A stretch of 64,000 nucleotides of DNA from Escherichia phage SF, in the sequence record MH359124; one strand, 5' to 3'. Shown here one piece after another: positions 4,639 to 53,981 of the stretch (position 1 is the stretch's first letter; each line of letters begins with the position of its first letter). A program made the position numbers and the translations under genes. The notes beneath the pieces are model-generated. The model was not told the DNA's origin and did not search any database. It saw nothing but the letters and a program-made list of their open reading frames with translations.

Positions 4639-5036
4639 TGTCTAATATCAATAAACTTTATTCAGATATCGACCCAGAAATGCGTATGGATTGGAACAAG
4701 GACGTTGCTCGTTCTGTAGGACTTCGTTCTATTAAAAACAGTCTTCTTGGCATAGTGACAACTAGAAAAGGCTCACGCCCCTTCGACCCTGAATTTGGAT
4801 GCGATTTGGTCGACGAACTTTTCGAGAACATGACACCACTTACAGCCGATACGATTGAGCGTAATATCCAGGCAGCTGTTCGTAACTATGAGCCACGCAT
4901 CGACAAACTTTCTGTAAGTGTAACGCCAGTATATGATGACTATACGGTTATAGTAGAGATTAGATTTTCGGTCGTAGACAACCCTGACGATATTGAACAA
5001 ATTAAACTTCAGTTAGCGTCAAGCAATAGAGTGTAA
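4638..5036 (+). CDS. 25: gp25 baseplate wedge subunit (gpW/lysozyme-like fold)
   Basis: 132-aa ORF (T4 gp25 is 132 aa), translationally coupled to gp26 (ATGA overlap). Confidence 0.9.
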   Translation: MSNINKLYSDIDPEMRMDWNKDVARSVGLRSIKNSLLGIVTTRKGSRPFDPEFGCDLVDELFENMTPLTADTIERNIQAAVRNYEPRIDKLSVSVTPVYDDYTVIVEIRFSVVDNPDDIEQIKLQLASSNRV

Positions 5037-5980: not shown

Positions 5981-6010
5981 GGCCCTTCCAAAAAGGTCGG
6001 GCCTTTTTTT
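5981..6010 (+). terminator. putative rho-independent terminator after uvsY.-2
   Basis: GGCCC...GGGCC hairpin followed by TTTTTTT between convergent genes. Confidence 0.45.
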
Positions 6011-6012
6011 AA

Positions 6013-6246
6013 TTAGAAGTCTTCTTCCTCATCCTCATCGTCGACGCCTTCAAGTTCGGCACGCTTACCTGCTAAGGCATCCCTGACAGAAATATCATCT
6101 GTATCTTTTAATTCCGTTTCTTTTATACGTTTCTTATAATAAGCTTCCAATTCTTCAAGCCCTTCTAAGGTATGACAACTAGCAATTTTACCCATGAATT
6201 CGTCAATAGATGCTTCGTATAAAAATTGTTTAAATTCAAGTACCAT
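6013..6246 (-). CDS. UvsW.1 small acidic protein
   Basis: 77-aa ORF immediately downstream of uvsW on the same strand, as in T4. Confidence 0.7.
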   Translation of the reverse strand: MVLEFKQFLYEASIDEFMGKIASCHTLEGLEELEAYYKKRIKETELKDTDDISVRDALAGKRAELEGVDDEDEEEDF

Positions 6247-11319: not shown

Positions 11320-11348
11320 AAAAAGGGACCGTAAGGTCCCTTTGTTTT
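11320..11348. terminator. bidirectional terminator between convergent rnlB and gp24
   Basis: aaaaaGGGACC-gtaa-GGTCCCtttgtttt: GC stem flanked by A-run and T-run. Confidence 0.65.
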
Positions 11349-12630
11349 ATTCATCAACGATGATTTTTGGCAATTTAACACCGAGTAAAACAGACAAGTC
11401 TGAACGTCCTGCCATTTTATCCATGTCCCCGCCATCAATTATTCTCGCTTCTTTTTCATCTTTTGCTACTGTGTAAGGATTTGCTGATAAAGCATATCTA
11501 ACCAATAATCCGATAGATGGTTGCAAGCTTTCTGGATCAACTACAACTTTAAATGCACCAACATGTTCTGGGTCATCTAAATCTACTCCTTCAGTGTATG
11601 GAGCATAAAAGATGGACCCTACAATTTCTTTTTCGCCGATATTTTCTACAACACCCACAATAACATAATCTAACGGACTGTTGGTGTCGCAGTAAAGAGG
11701 TAATCCATTTGCCAAGAATCCATAAGCATTTTGTGAAAGATACTTGTCATCTTCTGGCTTATGTTTTAACCAACCAGAAGCAGCAAGAATAGCAGCTGCA
11801 CGAGCTGAGGCTACACAAAACGTTGCAGTATAAGTTGTCTCTTTTTGAATGTGTGATACCATTTCACATACCATTCGATATAATGAACGACCTGCTTCTG
11901 GAGCGGATGCATAGCTCAAGTCAATAAATCCGGTGTCAGTAATTCCAGTAACTTTATAGCGTTTCGATACAGTAATTAAAGACTGAAGAATATCTTTATT
12001 AATTTCATCAGCCATTTCAGTGGCAAGCAAATCTTCTAAGAAGTTAGGGGCATCAAATCCATTCGCTTCCAAATCTTGCGCTAATTCAACCGTGAGACCA
12101 GTTTTAAGTTTACGAGATTTGACTGAAGTTTGCCATTTATTAATCTGGAATCTTGCATCAGAAATTTCGCTACCAGAGCTTTCAAATTTGCTTGTTACCG
12201 CTGCATCTGAAAATAACCGTACCTTTAAATGAACGACTGCAATCTGAAGAGCTAATTCTAGATCACTTTCTTGAATATCCGCAAATGGTGTATCTTCTAA
12301 CACTTTATAGACAATATTATTATATTTGAAAAAATCGCCTTTATTTAGTGTGACTTTTGATTCTTCTGTGAGCTCAGTAATTTTTTCTCGGTCTACATAT
12401 CCAACTTCGCCAGCATAAGTAGCACCAGTTTTAAATGTGAATTCGTTATCTGGGTTAAGATATTTGATACCATAAAAAGCAGCAACAGGTTGATTAGTTC
12501 TTTGTGTTGCTACAATGTCAGAATATATTAATTTAGTCGTAGCGCGAGTCAAAGCAACGAGATTTGGGCGACCAATTGAGTTGCTAGTAGACGTTGTAGA
12601 TTCACGCAATAATTTTTGGATTTTACTCAT
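11347..12630 (-). CDS. 24: gp24 capsid vertex protein
   Basis: 427-aa ORF (T4 gp24 is 427 aa), gp23-like fold region, RBS and late promoter upstream. Confidence 0.92.
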   Translation of the reverse strand: MSKIQKLLRESTTSTSNSIGRPNLVALTRATTKLIYSDIVATQRTNQPVAAFYGIKYLNPDNEFTFKTGATYAGEVGYVDREKITELTEESKVTLNKGDFFKYNNIVYKVLEDTPFADIQESDLELALQIAVVHLKVRLFSDAAVTSKFESSGSEISDARFQINKWQTSVKSRKLKTGLTVELAQDLEANGFDAPNFLEDLLATEMADEINKDILQSLITVSKRYKVTGITDTGFIDLSYASAPEAGRSLYRMVCEMVSHIQKETTYTATFCVASARAAAILAASGWLKHKPEDDKYLSQNAYGFLANGLPLYCDTNSPLDYVIVGVVENIGEKEIVGSIFYAPYTEGVDLDDPEHVGAFKVVVDPESLQPSIGLLVRYALSANPYTVAKDEKEARIIDGGDMDKMAGRSDLSVLLGVKLPKIIVDE

Positions 12631-12657
12631 TGCATTTTTTCCTTATGTGATATAGAT

Positions 12658-12665
12658 TATTTATA
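12658..12665 (-). promoter_or_regulatory. late promoter TATAAATA for gp24
   Basis: TATTTATA on plus, 28 nt upstream of the gp24 start. Confidence 0.65.
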
Positions 12666-12671
12666 AAGATT

Positions 12672-12702
12672 GTTTACAACGTATTTGGTATGTGATACTA
12701 TA
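12672..12702 (+). promoter_or_regulatory. T4-type early promoter (GTTTAC -35, TACTAT -10) for ORF 12732
   Basis: tGTTTACaacgtatttggtatgtgaTACTATag; downstream leader almost identical to 49557..49595. Confidence 0.6.
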
Positions 12703-12731
12703 GACTTATCAACTACAGAGGAGTAAACAAA

Positions 12732-13001
12732 ATGACTAAAGCACGTTTCTTACGAGATACTTTAAAAGTTCTGGAAGCTGAAGCAGTTAAGTTAGTAGAA
12801 AAATATGGTGCAAAAGTTAATGGTAATGCCTTCAACAAAGTATGGATGAAAGTTGATTCTGAAGCTCGAGCTAAAGGTTATTGGGCCACTGATAAACTTG
12901 CGTCATTCAAAAACAAAGACGGTTCTCCGGCATATGTCCAAGAAGGTATGCCTAATTGGCAAAATATTTTGAAAACTTACATCGAAATTGCACAGAAATA
13001 A
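12732..13001 (+). CDS. hypothetical Lys-rich 89-aa protein driven by an early promoter, antisense to the gp24/gp23 block
   Basis: RBS GAGGAG 8 nt upstream of ATG; early-promoter-like GTTTAC...TACTAT upstream; hairpin terminator downstream; no recognisable domain. Confidence 0.6.
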   Translation: MTKARFLRDTLKVLEAEAVKLVEKYGAKVNGNAFNKVWMKVDSEARAKGYWATDKLASFKNKDGSPAYVQEGMPNWQNILKTYIEIAQK

Positions 13002-13011
13002 AACCAAAAAT

Positions 13012-13029
13012 GGGAGACCGAAGTCTCCC
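13012..13029. terminator. terminator hairpin GGGAGAC-cgaa-GTCTCCC between ORF 12732 and gp23 3' end
   Basis: Perfect 7-bp stem; identical 18-mer recurs at 32353..32370. Confidence 0.55.
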
Positions 13030-13053
13030 AAAATAAGATTTAATCAATTAAGA

Positions 13054-14622
13054 TTAGATGCCTTTTACATATACACGGCGGAAGTAAGCGTTCTTACCAA
13101 GGCTGTTCAGGATAGACGGCATACCGGACTGGATGCGAGCACCTGGAGCCTGCAGGGAACTTTCAGCAAACGGGTTAACACCGATACCGTAACGAGTTTT
13201 AAAGCCCATTACCGGCTGGAAGTTCTTAGGATCGGAACCACGCAGTGGGGTAAGTGCAACGTAAGGAGCATAGTAAATACCTGCATCCATTTCGTTAGCA
13301 CCTTTGTAACCAACGGTGAAGTAATCCTGTTTAGCATACTGGTCGATGTATACGCGGTATTTACCACCAAGTACACCGGCAAATACAGACTTAGTAGTGT
13401 CGGTATTAAAACCAGAAGCCAGACCCTGTGCAGCATAAGAAATACCAGTATCAACTGAAGCCAGTACGTTAACTACGTTACGGGAAGCGATAATGAAGTT
13501 ACCTTCACCACGACCGGTTTGACGAGCAATTTCAACTGCTTCTTTATCAATCTGGAACAACAGAGCTTTAAAGCTTTCACCGGCCCAACGAGCACCACGG
13601 ATATCAATCGGGTCCTGGAAGTCAAATACGCCAGCTTTAGAACCAACGATATTAGTCATACCAGATTTACCAACCTGAGCGGAATAGTTAATCCAGTCAA
13701 CAACTTCACGGTTGATTTCCAGCATAATTTCAGTAGCAAGAATACCACTCAGTTCAGCATCAGCATCCATACCGTGTACTGCACGGAGGTCTTGTGCCAA
13801 TTCGATAGAGTAAGCTGCTTTCAGCTGACGAGATTTAGCTTCAATAACTTGTTTGTCGATACGGAAGCCCATTTCGTTCCACGGGTTGTCGGTAGAACCA
13901 TTGAAGCCTTCCTGAAGTTCAGCGATAGAAGTAGCCATACCTTCAGCGATTTCTACCAGTACACCAGCTTCCATTTGTTTCTTAATTTCAGCATCTAATT
14001 TAGCTGCATCGGTAGCACTAGCATCGATTGTTACTACAGCGGAAGCTTGCAGATACACAGTACCAGTTTCCTGGAAGAAGTGAGTATAGATATCACCTAC
14101 AACGGTTTGTGTGCTAGCAGCCAGAGCTGGGAATTTCTTAGCAGCACCCTGACCAGAGAACATCGCGTCTGGAGCATACATCGGATGGAAAGCTTCTTTA
14201 GCGCCAGCAGCGATAGGGTCTTTACCGTATACTGCACGGAGAGCAAATACCTGACCGGTAGGGCTGCTCATAGGCTGAACACCGCAAATATCAAAAGCGA
14301 TCAGATTAGGAATAGCACGACGAACCATACCCATAACGGCTGGCCCAATCTGGGTTACTGCACCAGAGGTTTGACCTGCTGCGATGTTCTGAGCATTATA
14401 ACCGTGGTCACCACCAATTTCAGCTTCGGTCAAGAAAGAACCAAATGCCTGAGCGATTTTCTCGTCTTTATATTCAGGGGATACTTCGAAATCTTTTTCC
14501 TGGTTTTCGAAGATTTTAGCGATAATAGCCTGCTTGCTATTAGCGATTTCTGGCAGGCCTTCACCTTCCAGCAGTTCTTTCCATTTGTCTACGAGCTGAG
14601 CTTTAGTTTTGATAGTAGTCAT
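13054..14622 (-). CDS. 23: gp23 major capsid protein
   Basis: 522-aa ORF beginning MTTIKTKAQLVDKWKELLEGEGLPEIANSKQAIIAKIFENQEKDF, near-identical to T4 gp23 (521 aa). Confidence 0.97.
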   Translation of the reverse strand: MTTIKTKAQLVDKWKELLEGEGLPEIANSKQAIIAKIFENQEKDFEVSPEYKDEKIAQAFGSFLTEAEIGGDHGYNAQNIAAGQTSGAVTQIGPAVMGMVRRAIPNLIAFDICGVQPMSSPTGQVFALRAVYGKDPIAAGAKEAFHPMYAPDAMFSGQGAAKKFPALAASTQTVVGDIYTHFFQETGTVYLQASAVVTIDASATDAAKLDAEIKKQMEAGVLVEIAEGMATSIAELQEGFNGSTDNPWNEMGFRIDKQVIEAKSRQLKAAYSIELAQDLRAVHGMDADAELSGILATEIMLEINREVVDWINYSAQVGKSGMTNIVGSKAGVFDFQDPIDIRGARWAGESFKALLFQIDKEAVEIARQTGRGEGNFIIASRNVVNVLASVDTGISYAAQGLASGFNTDTTKSVFAGVLGGKYRVYIDQYAKQDYFTVGYKGANEMDAGIYYAPYVALTPLRGSDPKNFQPVMGFKTRYGIGVNPFAESSLQAPGARIQSGMPSILNSLGKNAYFRRVYVKGI

Positions 14623-32345: not shown

Positions 32346-32352
32346 CACGAAA

Positions 32353-32370
32353 GGGAGACCGAAGTCTCCC
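32353..32370 (-). terminator. hairpin GGGAGAC-cgaa-GTCTCCC downstream of gp8
   Basis: Identical to the hairpin at 13012..13029. Confidence 0.5.
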
Positions 32371-32374
32371 TAAA

Positions 32375-33379
32375 TTAGAACATAAACAAAATATTGATCT
32401 CTTCGGTTTGGTCCATTGCCATAATAATAGGTGGACGGTTTTCCATATAAATCATTTCACCAGAATGACGCTGTAAATCTCTGGGGTCATAATAATCCTT
32501 TTCAGCCTTTATATTAGGGTCATTAGGACGGAGTTTAGCTTCCAAGGGGTTTGTGATAATAGAAATTTGTCTAAATCCTTTATTACCAGGCAGTGCTGCA
32601 TTAGGGAAATAAACTGAGTCTAAATAGGCTTTAAAACGAATTATGTTTGCTTTAACTCTATACACAAGGCCAAAATCATCTTGTTGCCAGGTTAGATTGT
32701 TTTCATATCCCCAACGAGCAGGGTCTTCTTTAACTTCTTCCGGCCATGGAACGACTATATATTCATTAGTACATCGGTTTATAGACACATCAGGTGGAAT
32801 CTCATAAAGATACTCCCATATATATCCGTCACCAACTTCGATAATCCCTTCAGCATCTCCACGGCCTTCAGGAGGGGTTAAAGACCTAACAGACGGAGTC
32901 CATTTACCACCTAATTTAAGACATTCTTCTTTGTTGTCGAGAGACTCAATAGAACACATCCCAACATCAGGAACATCTACGCAACGGTATACTAACCATC
33001 CGGCCCCGACTTCAGTGGCATTATATGGGGCTGTATTACATACGACTATATCATTTATTTTGAATGTATAAGGGTCTGGATAACGAATATCTCCCCAGTC
33101 ACGTCTAGGAATAACCGAGTCTAACATAGATGGGATAACTTTAACTAAACCCATCATGTTAGTCCACATATCTGTTACACCTAAAACCGAGTCTGTTGGA
33201 TACGGTGGGGCGAAGCCCACCTCATTTTCATTAGCAGCCCATGGTTCAGACCGACCAAACGTTATAAAGATGGTGTTTTTATTATCACCATCACCTATTG
33301 AATTGTAGAAATTCAACATTTTTTCAGTTCTAAATTTTGAAGTAACTATCGCACGATAGACAACACTTGAATCATTCAT
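32375..33379 (-). CDS. 8: gp8 baseplate wedge subunit
   Basis: 334-aa ORF (T4 gp8 is 334 aa). Confidence 0.9.
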   Translation of the reverse strand: MNDSSVVYRAIVTSKFRTEKMLNFYNSIGDGDNKNTIFITFGRSEPWAANENEVGFAPPYPTDSVLGVTDMWTNMMGLVKVIPSMLDSVIPRRDWGDIRYPDPYTFKINDIVVCNTAPYNATEVGAGWLVYRCVDVPDVGMCSIESLDNKEECLKLGGKWTPSVRSLTPPEGRGDAEGIIEVGDGYIWEYLYEIPPDVSINRCTNEYIVVPWPEEVKEDPARWGYENNLTWQQDDFGLVYRVKANIIRFKAYLDSVYFPNAALPGNKGFRQISIITNPLEAKLRPNDPNIKAEKDYYDPRDLQRHSGEMIYMENRPPIIMAMDQTEEINILFMF

Positions 33380-45146: not shown

Positions 45147-45458
45147 ATGAAAACCTATCAAGAGTTTATCGCTGAAGCTACTAAAGCCGATAAAAATTTT
45201 ATTATTAACACCACCGGTCCGTTAGATGATGAATACGCTAATGCTATTATTAAGTCAATTTCTAATCAAGGCGTTGAAGTAACAAATTTCGAATATAAGA
45301 AAAATGATACTTATATGATAATTAGTATCAAAAAAGGTTCAAAAGCCAAAATTAAATCCGCATTTGGTGTTATGCGAGTTGACCAAATCGATAACCACGA
45401 TTTTTCACAAACAGGGGCCAAACGCCAAAATACCATTTCTTCTAAAGGCATAAAATAA
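45147..45458 (+). CDS. internal protein (ipI locus) with capsid-targeting leader
   Basis: N-terminus MKTYQEFIAEA, the T4 internal-protein capsid targeting sequence; early promoter upstream; position adjacent to 57B. Confidence 0.8.
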   Translation: MKTYQEFIAEATKADKNFIINTTGPLDDEYANAIIKSISNQGVEVTNFEYKKNDTYMIISIKKGSKAKIKSAFGVMRVDQIDNHDFSQTGAKRQNTISSKGIK

Positions 45459-45494
45459 TTTACAACACGATAGGACTATGTTATAATAGTCCTA
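45459..45494 (+). promoter_or_regulatory. early promoter TTTACA-17-TATAAT embedded in a stem-loop (PeSL)
   Basis: aTTTACAacacgaTAGGACTAtgtTATAATAGTCCTAtc: -10 lies in the loop of an 8-bp inverted repeat. Confidence 0.7.
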
Positions 45495-45519
45495 TCAAAA
45501 CAACCAAATGGAACCTAAA

Positions 45520-45783
45520 ATGAAAACTTTCAACGAATTCATCTCAGAATCGTCTGGTGTGAAAATTAACAAAGCGGTCAATCAGGTTATTGCTGATATT
45601 CTTAATTTGTATAACATTGACTTAACTCCGCATATCACGCTTGGTAACAAACGAAACTTTTTCATATTTGACACATCCGAACTTGATGAAAATCAGTTCA
45701 ATAACATTCAACGTTTTGCGAATGATAAAGGTCTTCGACACGAGCCTGGCGGCTATAAAAAATACGCAATATATTTGAAATAA
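45520..45783 (+). CDS. internal-protein-like (CTS variant MKTFNEFISE)
   Basis: Start at ATG 45520; CTS-like N-terminus; PeSL-type promoter-stem-loop upstream. Confidence 0.65.
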   Translation: MKTFNEFISESSGVKINKAVNQVIADILNLYNIDLTPHITLGNKRNFFIFDTSELDENQFNNIQRFANDKGLRHEPGGYKKYAIYLK

Positions 45784-45852
45784 AGGTATACAAGCCTATA
45801 GGGATATGTTATAGTAGTCCTATCAAAACAAATGAGTAAATGGAGAAATAAA

Positions 45853-47959: not shown

Positions 47960-48150
47960 GCCGAGTAGCGTTTTTGACGGAACGTTCGGATATGGTCGAG
48001 ATATGGCCTTTTAAAAATATTGAGTAGCGTCAACTGCTTAATAACCGGGTTCGAATCCCGGCGTTTCGTACAAACACTTGCCTTAGCAGGTGGAACCCCG
48101 ACAAGGTTGCCGCAAGGCATAGCCCCTTCCGAAAGGTTGGGGCTTTTTGG
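47960..48150 (+). ncRNA. candidate small stable RNA with tRNA-like T-arm and terminator (possibly analogous to T4 rnaC/rnaD)
   Basis: 385-bp ORF-free stretch next to the tRNAs; tRNA-like T-arm CCGGG-TTCGAAT-CCCGG (48045..48061) and pairing 7-nt acceptor-like strands; GC hairpin plus T-run at 48121..48148. Boundaries approximate. Confidence 0.35.
48121..48148 (+). terminator. rho-independent terminator (AGCCCC...GGGGCT plus TTTTT)
   Basis: agccccttccgaaaggttggggcttttt at the end of the ORF-free RNA region. Confidence 0.65.
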
Positions 48151-48193
48151 CATAATAATAAATAGATAAGTTAATTAACTTAGGAAAAGCAAA

Positions 48194-48664: not shown

Positions 48665-48691
48665 GCCCCTTCCTTACGGTTGGGGCTTTTT
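48665..48691 (+). terminator. rho-independent terminator after IP gene 48194, near-copy of 48121..48148
   Basis: gccccttccttacggttggggcttttt. Confidence 0.65.
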
Positions 48692-48829
48692 GGTATCTAG
48701 GCCTTTCCGGGAATCTCTAGGCATCATTTAGTTTATACCCTTTATAATAATATATTATCCTACCTTTTAATTGCCTCTCTCTGCCCTAGAATTCCCCGGA
48801 ACTTTTTAAAAATTTTTTTTCACAAAACT

Positions 48830-48859
48830 GTTTACATCCCTGTTCTTCCGTGGTACTAT
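48830..48859 (+). promoter_or_regulatory. early promoter GTTTACA...TACTAT
   Basis: ctGTTTACAtccctgttcttccgtggTACTATac upstream of ORF 48902. Confidence 0.55.
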
Positions 48860-49537: not shown

Positions 49538-49566
49538 TGTACAAGCACCAAAGATGGTGATACTAT
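49538..49566 (+). promoter_or_regulatory. early promoter for ORF 49596 (leader duplicated at 12690..12731)
   Basis: tgatactatagacttatcaactacagaggag shared with the 12732 upstream region; -35 is TGTACA here. Confidence 0.55.
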
Positions 49567-49595
49567 AGACTTATCAACTACAGAGGAGAAACAAA

Positions 49596-49823
49596 ATGGC
49601 TACAGTTAGTATTGATGTCGTTGATTATGAATACACTGAAGAAGTTATTCGCAACCGTCACCCTGAAGTTCGTATCGATTCAGTCCAAGATTCCAAGTTC
49701 TGGACAACTGAGCTTAATCTGAGTGGTCCTTATGAAGCTGTTAAGAAGTTCATGGTTGAAGAATACTGTGAAGGCATGCACCCGGAAGACGCCGAGTTTT
49801 ATGTCAATTTGATTAAAAAATAA
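49596..49823 (+). CDS. hypothetical acidic protein (75 aa)
   Basis: RBS GAGGAG; promoter and leader nearly identical to the one upstream of 12732. Confidence 0.6.
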   Translation: MATVSIDVVDYEYTEEVIRNRHPEVRIDSVQDSKFWTTELNLSGPYEAVKKFMVEEYCEGMHPEDAEFYVNLIKK

Positions 49824-52428: not shown

Positions 52429-52626
52429 ATGTCTCGTGAATTAGATTGTGCTGTACGTACTGCAGTAGCTGCCCTGGAAAACCTGTTCCAAATTGCAACA
52501 GAAGAACGCGAAGAAGTTACATTATGGATTGAAGATAACGCAGGTCTGAATCTCCAGGACGCGATCTCATTATCCCACAATAGTATCACTGTTCAAGGCT
52601 GGGTATCGTCTAGTTATTCTTGCTAA
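52429..52626 (+). CDS. small protein, member 3 of the tandem paralog triplet (C-terminus QGWVSSSYSC)
   Basis: 65 aa; conserved C-terminus and RBS context. Confidence 0.65.
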   Translation: MSRELDCAVRTAVAALENLFQIATEEREEVTLWIEDNAGLNLQDAISLSHNSITVQGWVSSSYSC

Positions 52627-52630
52627 AACA

Positions 52631-52670
52631 GTTTACAACAAGATAGGGCTATGTTATAGTAGTCCTATCA
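52631..52670 (+). promoter_or_regulatory. early promoter with stem-loop (PeSL)
   Basis: GTTTACAacaagaTAGGGCTAtgtTATAGTAGTCCTAtc. Confidence 0.65.
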
Positions 52671-52688
52671 AATTAAATGGAGTCCACA

Positions 52689-53922: not shown

Positions 53923-53962
53923 GTTTACATAATTATAGGGACTATGTTATAGTAGTCCTATT
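53923..53962 (+). promoter_or_regulatory. early promoter with stem-loop (PeSL)
   Basis: GTTTACAtaattaTAGGGACTAtgtTATAGTAGTCCTAtt. Confidence 0.65.
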
Positions 53963-53981
53963 AAAACATGAGGAGAATATT

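Follow-up and report, generated by a model that had tools for sequence, protein, structure and literature searches.

The closest described relatives of the locus considered here come mainly from T4-type phages. The locus itself is the spacer between the capsid genes 24 and 23 in a 64,000-nucleotide (nt) stretch of Escherichia phage SF (sequence record MH359124; this whole stretch is called the window below), in which a gene for a basic protein of 89 amino acids (aa) runs antisense to both neighbours. Early-promoter ORFan cassettes, or mobile regulatory cassettes (PeSLs), have been described for T4-type phages (Arbiol et al. 2010, PMC2839356; Comeau et al. 2014, PMC4122927). Phage T4 has segD, a free-standing homing endonuclease gene of the GIY-YIG type, in the same 23/24 slot, as the original prediction for this DNA, made by a model from the letters alone, had stated; its antisense orientation is the same too. 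A further parallel is offered by the morons of lambdoid phages, autonomous promoter-gene-terminator units that sit between conserved late genes. Existing annotations list the gene as a hypothetical protein in RB69 (RB69ORF188c/189c), JS98 (orf173), PhAPEC2 (PhAPEC2_170) and more than 180 other records. The three named genes are one family with that of the window, apart from the RB69 reference copy being frameshifted in two, and a full-text literature search for the locus names returned no paper and no reported function. We consider it likely that the gene belongs to an early transcription unit complete in itself, which was inserted between the terminator of gene 23 and the late promoter of gene 24 and opposes the late capsid genes. 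It is a further example of the T4-type early-promoter ORFan cassettes, in the slot known for T4 segD, and is not a homing endonuclease.

The slot cassette shares several properties with the PeSL cassettes. In both, a small gene of unassigned function follows a conserved early promoter, close relatives differ in having it or not, the recombination junctions fall in the conserved promoter and leader, and plastic, non-essential genes lie alongside within the conserved core. It differs from them in that its promoter has no adjoining stem-loop and its upstream neighbour is the gene-24 late promoter. With the T4 segD locus it has in common the slot and the orientation; the promoter-like regions behind the late box are homologous in the two, as are the gp23 terminator hairpins. 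Its cargo, by contrast, is unrelated to SegD, lacks nuclease motifs and has 89 aa where SegD has 223. The cassette resembles morons as an independent, dispensable and patchily distributed unit between conserved structural genes. A moron is expressed from a prophage, whereas this unit would be expressed early in lytic growth; it also runs against the flanking operon and borrows its neighbour's hairpin, with no proper terminator on its own strand.

A probable insertion between genes 24 and 23

The window is from a Mosigvirus (RB69-like, T4-like). A 901-bp stretch around the spacer is 99.6% identical to PhAPEC2, APCEc01 and many others, and the identities of gp24 and gp23 were taken from the annotated PhAPEC2 record at this level of identity. 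The spacer from gene 24 to gene 23 (12631..13053) is exactly 423 bp, and the original prediction of a lysine-rich open reading frame (ORF) on its plus strand, convergent with gp23, holds in its coordinates and in its richness in lysine, which makes up 14.6%. The early promoter and strong ribosome-binding site (RBS) predicted ahead of that ORF were likewise located by sequence, as GTTTAC-N18-TACTAT and GAGGAG. The coordinates of the features are collected in Table 1.

Comparison with related genomes distinguishes at least five states of the slot: empty, Mosig-type ORF, Dhaka-type ORF, ORF plus segD, and segD alone. Slot length was read from the span of joined matches in a sensitive blastn search with the spacer and 400 bp of each flank. 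In most Tequatrovirus genomes (Lutter, fPS-65, slur03, PE37 and others) this span is 883 bp, against 1223 bp in the window, leaving a slot of about 83 bp; in Klebsiella T4-like phages, Serratia X20 and Acinetobacter Ac42 the slot measures about 81-95 bp. In Lutter it runs from the gene-24 start through its RBS, TATTTATA, 17 nt and the hairpin GGGACC-CGAA-GGTCCC to the gene-23 stop. It contains no GTTTAC, and the sequence comparison found no early promoter in it. When nine genomes are aligned on the late box, the filled slots leave the empty one right after TATTTATA, with the early promoter next. The box is retained in filled and empty slots alike, and divergence begins directly to its right. 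Since the slot is empty and without an early promoter in most T-even genera, promoter, leader and cargo together appear as an insertion. This agrees with the original prediction, and in the same comparison of the 23/24 region across T-even genomes the ORF is found neither in T4 nor in most T-even genera.

The promoter of the inserted unit follows the T4-type early pattern, with GTTTAC at 12672-12677, TACTAT at 12696-12701 and the TG extension at 12693-12694, and its -35 and -10 match the PST/T4 early consensus TTTACW..N17..TAYWAT (PMC2839356; PMC4122927). The RBS (12718-12723) lies 8 nt ahead of the ATG. Early promoter and gene-24 late promoter stand back to back with 6 nt between them, and the RB69 equivalents of both had been predicted, the late promoter as Pl:109573 and the early one, by hidden Markov model score, as Pe:109605 (minus strand) (Nolan et al. 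2006, PMC1524935, supplement). Within the window, strong early-type matches (GTTTAC or ATTTAC, about 18 nt, TAnnAT, then RBS and ATG) all lie on the plus strand, and the slot promoter falls into one repeat family (D1) with four other plus-strand promoters. It is also homologous to the slot promoters of JS98, JE01, F2, IME08 and the metagenomic T4-like contig L009, and to the region upstream of T4 segD.

Identity with a strict PeSL was rejected, as 12620-12740 holds no inverted repeat of 6 nt or more except the palindrome CTATAG, while the control at 45469-45496 has one of 11 bp. Elsewhere in the window, PeSL-like early promoters at 45442-45506, 45770-45834, 52615-52679 and 53939-53968 carry the -10 within the loop that separates the two arms of an 11-bp perfect inverted repeat; one of them is GATAGGACTAT-gttata-ATAGTCCTATC at 45469-45496.

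At the other end of the cassette, the hairpin deviates from shuffled sequence on both strands (z = -4.9 on the plus strand, -4.0 on the minus strand). On the gene-23 strand it forms a C(UUCG)G tetraloop followed by TTTTTGGTTTT, the T-run of 13001-13010, and the terminator scan reports a terminator on the minus strand only. On the ORF strand the hairpin (-13.5 kcal/mol) is followed by AAAAUAAG, with no U-tract, and does not score as a terminator. The claim that the ORF ends at a shared hairpin is therefore right for the physical element, but as an intrinsic terminator it serves the gp23 strand only. A hairpin stands at the equivalent position in all relatives compared, and it probably lies at or near the right boundary of the insert, whose position is approximate. 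In an Rfam search of the spacer no family was recovered, the top match (E 0.07) falling far short of the gathering score.

Other hairpins were seen in the window. A 90% copy of the gp23 hairpin at 32350-32379, with the stem-loop GGGAGACCGAAGTCTCCC, lies between minus-strand late genes of 334 aa and 287 aa, taken as genes 8 and 9 by size only. It adjoins a TATAAATA late box, an arrangement that resembles an empty 23/24 slot. A GC-rich terminator-like hairpin, GCCCCTTCC-GAAAGG-TTGGGGCTTTTT, is present in three copies (5982-6013, 48122-48153 and 48665-48696; family D9).

Table 1. Positions of the slot cassette, its flanking genes and its regulatory elements in the window
Feature	Coordinates	Strand	Basis or remark
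89-aa basic protein gene, RB69ORF188c/189c family, phrog_6003	12732..13001	+	ORF and homologues
Inserted cassette, approximate extent against the empty slot	12666..13010	+	Comparison with phage Lutter and other genomes with short slots
T4-type early (sigma-70) promoter	12672..12701	+	-35 GTTTAC, 18-nt spacer, TG-extended -10 TACTAT
Promoter-leader module A	12692..12731	+	-10 region, initial transcribed region, GAGGAG RBS
Second copy of module A	49557..49596	+	Fused to frd.3 homologue, ORF 49596..49823
Intrinsic terminator hairpin of gp23, GGGAGAC-CGAA-GTCTCCC	13011..13030	-	Between ORF stop and gp23 stop
Gene-24 late promoter box TATAAATA	12658..12665	-	Left boundary of insert; A/T-rich; early -35 just beyond
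Gene-24 RBS	12640-12644	-	Read in sequence
Gene 24, capsid vertex protein	11347..12630	-	Left flank of slot
Gene 23, major capsid protein	13054..14622	-	Right flank of slot

An exchangeable promoter-leader module

The leader of the slot gene recurs elsewhere in the window. Positions 12692-12723 are repeated exactly at 49557-49588, a 32-nt match where none is expected by chance, and with a 1-nt indel the repeat extends through the ATG at about 41 of 42 positions. The near identity of this promoter-leader to that of the ORF at 49596, pointed out in the original prediction, is thus real. The -35 regions of these two best copies are unrelated, and weaker copies at 48850, 56970 and 60520 define a promoter sub-family, TACTATA-ACnTATCAACTAC.

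RB69 has a homologue of the 49557 promoter ahead of RB69ORF145c (54 aa), with a leader that equals the slot leader through ATGACTA in a run of 48 nt. There the order is RB69ORF145c, a second early promoter and then frd.3 (locus L015, RB69 72.3-72.6 kb). The window has neither RB69ORF145c nor the second promoter, so that module A runs straight into frd.3, the junction lying in the leader between RBS and ATG. Among close relatives the module precedes four cargos: the Mosig-type ORF, the Dhaka-type allele (in Mosigvirus LF82-9), ORF145c (in RB69) and frd.3 (in the window). When LF82-9 is compared with the window, and RB69 with the window at 49557, the junctions of replacement fall at the RBS and leader of the repeated sequence. 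These alignments show an exchangeable module, swapped independently of its cargo by recombination with junctions at the RBS, and its occurrence with four cargos matches the behaviour of the T4-type mobile regulatory cassettes (PMC2839356; PMC4122927).

The proposal that the ORF arrived as a promoter cassette stands in so far as the insert begins right after the late box and carries -35, -10, leader and ORF. The repeat shared with 49557 points to something else, namely recombination at the level of the leader, and not to arrival of the ORF together with that promoter.

Shared starts of another kind occur in six small plus-strand ORFs (45143, 45516, 48194, 56667, 57508 and 58082; families D4, D6 and D7), which open with a near-identical 30-34 nt, ATGAAAAC-TAT-AAGA-TTTAT..., encoding M-K-T/S-Y-...-E-F. 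This suggests either paralogous early genes or shared modules of 5' coding sequence and leader.

Distribution of the gene and exchange between genera

By tblastn the protein is encoded in 186 phage records, in 184 of which the match spans at least 80% of its length; 119 are at least 80% identical (Mosig-type) and 67, the Dhakavirus-type group, are below 60%. The Mosig-type cassette occupies the slot in 118 records. The Dhakavirus allele (JS98 orf173) is 34% identical and occupies the identical slot, beside a duplicated gene 24. Contig L009 has a 62%-identical variant in the same slot, and a scan of IMG/VR gave six loci, all of Dhaka type. Two rV5-like contigs, ABPH49 and L011, encode relatives at 30-35% identity within long same-strand runs of small genes, one neighbour in which is similar to T7 gp0.6. 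This is a small family confined to phages, always in contexts of early-gene type. The two gene 24 copies beside the slot are in tandem in JS98-type phages (locus L002, 835-3399) and in L009 (1337-3901).

Several genomes combine alleles and flanks of different genera. The cassette of Tequatrovirus JE01 is near-identical to that of Dhakavirus JS98 (99% amino-acid identity; synonymous divergence, dS, 0.16) and sits between flanks of Tequatrovirus type. LF82-9 matches the window from gene 24 through promoter and leader to GAGGAG and then continues with a Dhaka-type ORF. Three nt after that ORF begins a GIY-YIG gene 57% identical to T4 SegD, and near-identity with the window (97-100%) returns about 30 nt inside gene 23. 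This composite of Dhaka-type ORF and segD is found in 38 records, including the Dhakavirus IME08 and F2, which is labelled a Tequatrovirus and has a Mosig-like gp23 3' end. In L009 a Mosig-like ORF follows a promoter-leader that resembles that of T4 segD (TATTAT...ACAAACGGAG). Across the genomes compared, three cargos (Mosig-type ORF, Dhaka-type ORF and segD) and three types of promoter-leader are joined in at least five combinations. For the window against JS98, identity is 84% for gp23, 70% for gp24 and 34% for the slot ORF, and this disparity fits a diverse pool of alleles or fast evolution better than simple vertical descent.

The genomes with segD also differ at the end of gene 23. T4 segD is preceded by ATTTAC-N18-TGATATTAT, with TATTAT as the -10 (locus L005, about 4735-4800), whose position corresponds by homology to that of the early promoters in filled slots. 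No segD-specific promoter was identified in T4 (Edgell et al. 2010, PMC2988022); the homology of ATTTAC-N18-TATTAT suggests a candidate. Where segD is present, the last nine codons of gene 23 (F-R-R-V-Y-V-K-G-I-stop; 13054-13083) show a cluster of synonymous changes against segD-less relatives: nine in LF82-9 and F2 against the window, six in IME08 against JS98 and three in T4 against Lutter. The window reads TTC CGC CGT GTA TAT GTA AAA GGC ATC here, and LF82-9 reads TTT AGA CGC GTC TAC GTT AAA GGA ATT. Beyond the patch LF82-9 and F2 show scattered differences only, with 97-100% identity over the next 300 nt or so. In the window these codons are of the type found in genomes without segD. The patch looks like the pattern expected of a homing-endonuclease target that has been made resistant, with the window holding the unmodified version. 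Such a pattern would explain how the Dhaka-type allele together with segD came to replace the Mosig-type allele by co-conversion. T4 SegD reportedly does not bring about the homing of its own gene, which weighs against co-conversion.

The 89-aa protein

The encoded protein has a predicted isoelectric point of 9.6 and is 100% identical to that of PhAPEC2 and of many other Mosigviruses. The ratio of nonsynonymous to synonymous substitution (dN/dS) is 0.146 between the window and L009, 0.03 between JS98 and JE01, and 0.10-0.13 in comparisons with LF82-9, and homologues keep a length of 84-90 aa down to 30% identity. Judged by these substitution patterns, purifying selection acts on the ORF, which is a real gene. 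Two relatives show that it is also dispensable: the RB69 reference copy has +1 and -1 frameshifts that yield ORF188c and ORF189c, a patch of substitutions and three substitutions in the leader (locus L012, 5292-5532), and in phage mogra the gene is split.

An AlphaFold2 model built from eight sequences is confident (predicted local distance difference score, pLDDT, 90.8; predicted template-modelling score, pTM, 0.75). It consists of three helices (3-25, 31-48 and 76-88) with an inserted beta-hairpin (52-60/66-70). M1, K3, F6, G31, N32, N35 and Q70 are invariant across the family and N30 nearly so; no residue of catalytic type is among the family's invariant positions.

The protein matches phrog_6003 (E 2e-45), a PHROGs family without assigned function. 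Pfam gave only DUF4859, at E 0.003, below its cutoff, in two near-identical members of 11, and this domain was rejected as subthreshold and not recurrent in the family. NCBIfam gave nothing meaningful, and the best match in a profile search of the PDB had an E-value of 0.7. Across Pfam, NCBIfam, PHROGs, and the PDB profile and structure comparisons, no structural or family match points to a function. As the original prediction supposed, the gene is unrelated to SegD: BLASTP against the T4 protein gives 18.9 bits over 17 residues, and in the absence of any Pfam nuclease match a GIY-YIG homing endonuclease was rejected.

An exhaustive profile search of 1.84 billion representative proteins gave only nine matches. 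Two of these are large repeat proteins, with cytochrome-b5-like repeats and eukaryotic immunoglobulin (Ig)-like repeats respectively, whose significance comes only from summed repeats; both were set aside as spurious or local resemblance. In the former, a metagenomic protein of 655 aa, the repeats begin with WTTEKLAVYNGKNNQPAYIAV, which resembles residues 51-70 of the slot protein (12882-12941), WATDKLASFKNKDGSPAYVQ. The match covers about 30 residues and is significant only by summing five repeats, probably a coincidence of local motifs.

Mechanism and alternative explanations

These data allow us to propose how the unit might work. Host sigma-70 RNA polymerase would transcribe the gene in the opening minutes of infection. 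As the plus strand of the hairpin lacks a U-tract, some early transcripts probably continue antisense to the 3' end of gene 23 before being stopped downstream. The protein is most likely a non-enzymatic early accessory factor that would bind a host or phage macromolecule stoichiometrically, and stoichiometric binding would suit a factor of host-takeover or counter-defence type rather than an enzyme or virion component. The cassette may spread by homologous recombination in the conserved gp23 and gp24 flanks and in short promoter and RBS homologies, and, where a segD-type homing endonuclease is linked, by co-conversion as well.

Some observations weigh against an inserted, functional early unit. 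The frameshifts in RB69 could mark a pseudogene, or could be sequencing errors in the 2003 record. In this AT-rich region a generic promoter scan yields four matches where shuffles lead one to expect 3.0, which is no enrichment; the promoter call is therefore founded on homology to the early-promoter family of the phage and on what was published for RB69. Whether the gene was gained or lost was inferred by parsimony, from a sampled survey rather than a full phylogeny. A gene ancestral to the T-evens at 23/24 and lost in most lineages would account for the identical slot in two genera whose alleles, at only 34% identity, suggest long residence, and for a promoter region that is homologous even in T4. 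We nevertheless hold such an ancestry to be very improbable, given the compact empty slots without promoter remnant in Klebsiella, Serratia and Acinetobacter T4-likes and most Tequatrovirus, the demonstrable recent transfers into other genera (JE01, LF82-9, F2), and the gap between gp23 and gp24 (84% and 70% identical between the two genera) and the ORF. That the ORF is a chance reading frame in an AT-rich spacer, with no known domain and broken in the RB69 reference, is hardly credible: the dN/dS of 0.03-0.15 effectively refutes it, and coverage in nearly all matching records, the length kept over wide divergence, the confident model and the strong RBS speak against it too.

Other alternatives concern what the unit does. 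The ORF may be tied to segD, as hitch-hiking cargo or as an accessory or immunity factor, the window's copy having been left without the endonuclease. The Dhaka-type allele does form one operon with segD in the 38 composite records from Mosigvirus, Dhakavirus and a Tequatrovirus-labelled genome, the tract replaced in LF82-9 runs exactly from the ORF's RBS to the patch of nine synonymous changes and looks like co-conversion, and T4 segD occupies the same slot behind a homologous promoter. However, segD is missing from most carriers (most Dhakaviruses and 118 Mosig-type records), the neighbours in the two rV5-like loci inspected (ABPH49 and L011) include no endonuclease by annotation or Pfam, and T4 has segD without the ORF; we regard such a tie as unlikely. 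A function at the RNA level, with the ORF secondary, is quite improbable. Here an antisense transcript over the gene-23 terminator and 3' end, or interference with the gene-24 late promoter, would tune or delay capsid expression. The hairpin's lack of a U-tract on the plus strand makes antisense read-through plausible, the two promoters stand only 6 nt apart, and three cargos (two ORF alleles and segD) share the position and orientation of the promoter. Set against this are the strong purifying selection on a protein with a well-folded predicted structure, homologues in unrelated phages that are not antisense to capsid genes, and the many T-even phages, indeed most, that have no early promoter in the slot.

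An early transcription unit inserted against the capsid genes remains the preferred explanation. A bolder extension of it would make the protein the founder of a new fold family of early effectors, for example in counter-defence or host takeover, that binds its target through the N30/G31/N32/N35 loop and Q70, with its position in the slot maintained as segD-type endonucleases targeting the 3' end of gene 23 drive allele replacement between T-even genera (a 'gene drive' site); this we consider doubtful.

Significance

The locus does not overturn current understanding; it is a known kind of element with an uncharacterised protein. As an orphan that is predicted to be well folded and is under purifying selection, this protein is a reasonable candidate for screens of early host interaction and counter-defence. 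The slot is also of interest for phage engineering, as a site that demonstrably tolerates insertions and comes with a ready-made, predicted early promoter. Lying inside the most conserved structural module of T4-like phages, it offers a compact natural case of the shuffling of an accessory gene and its promoter, and it illustrates how an adjacent gene can be taken from one genus to another by a homing endonuclease.

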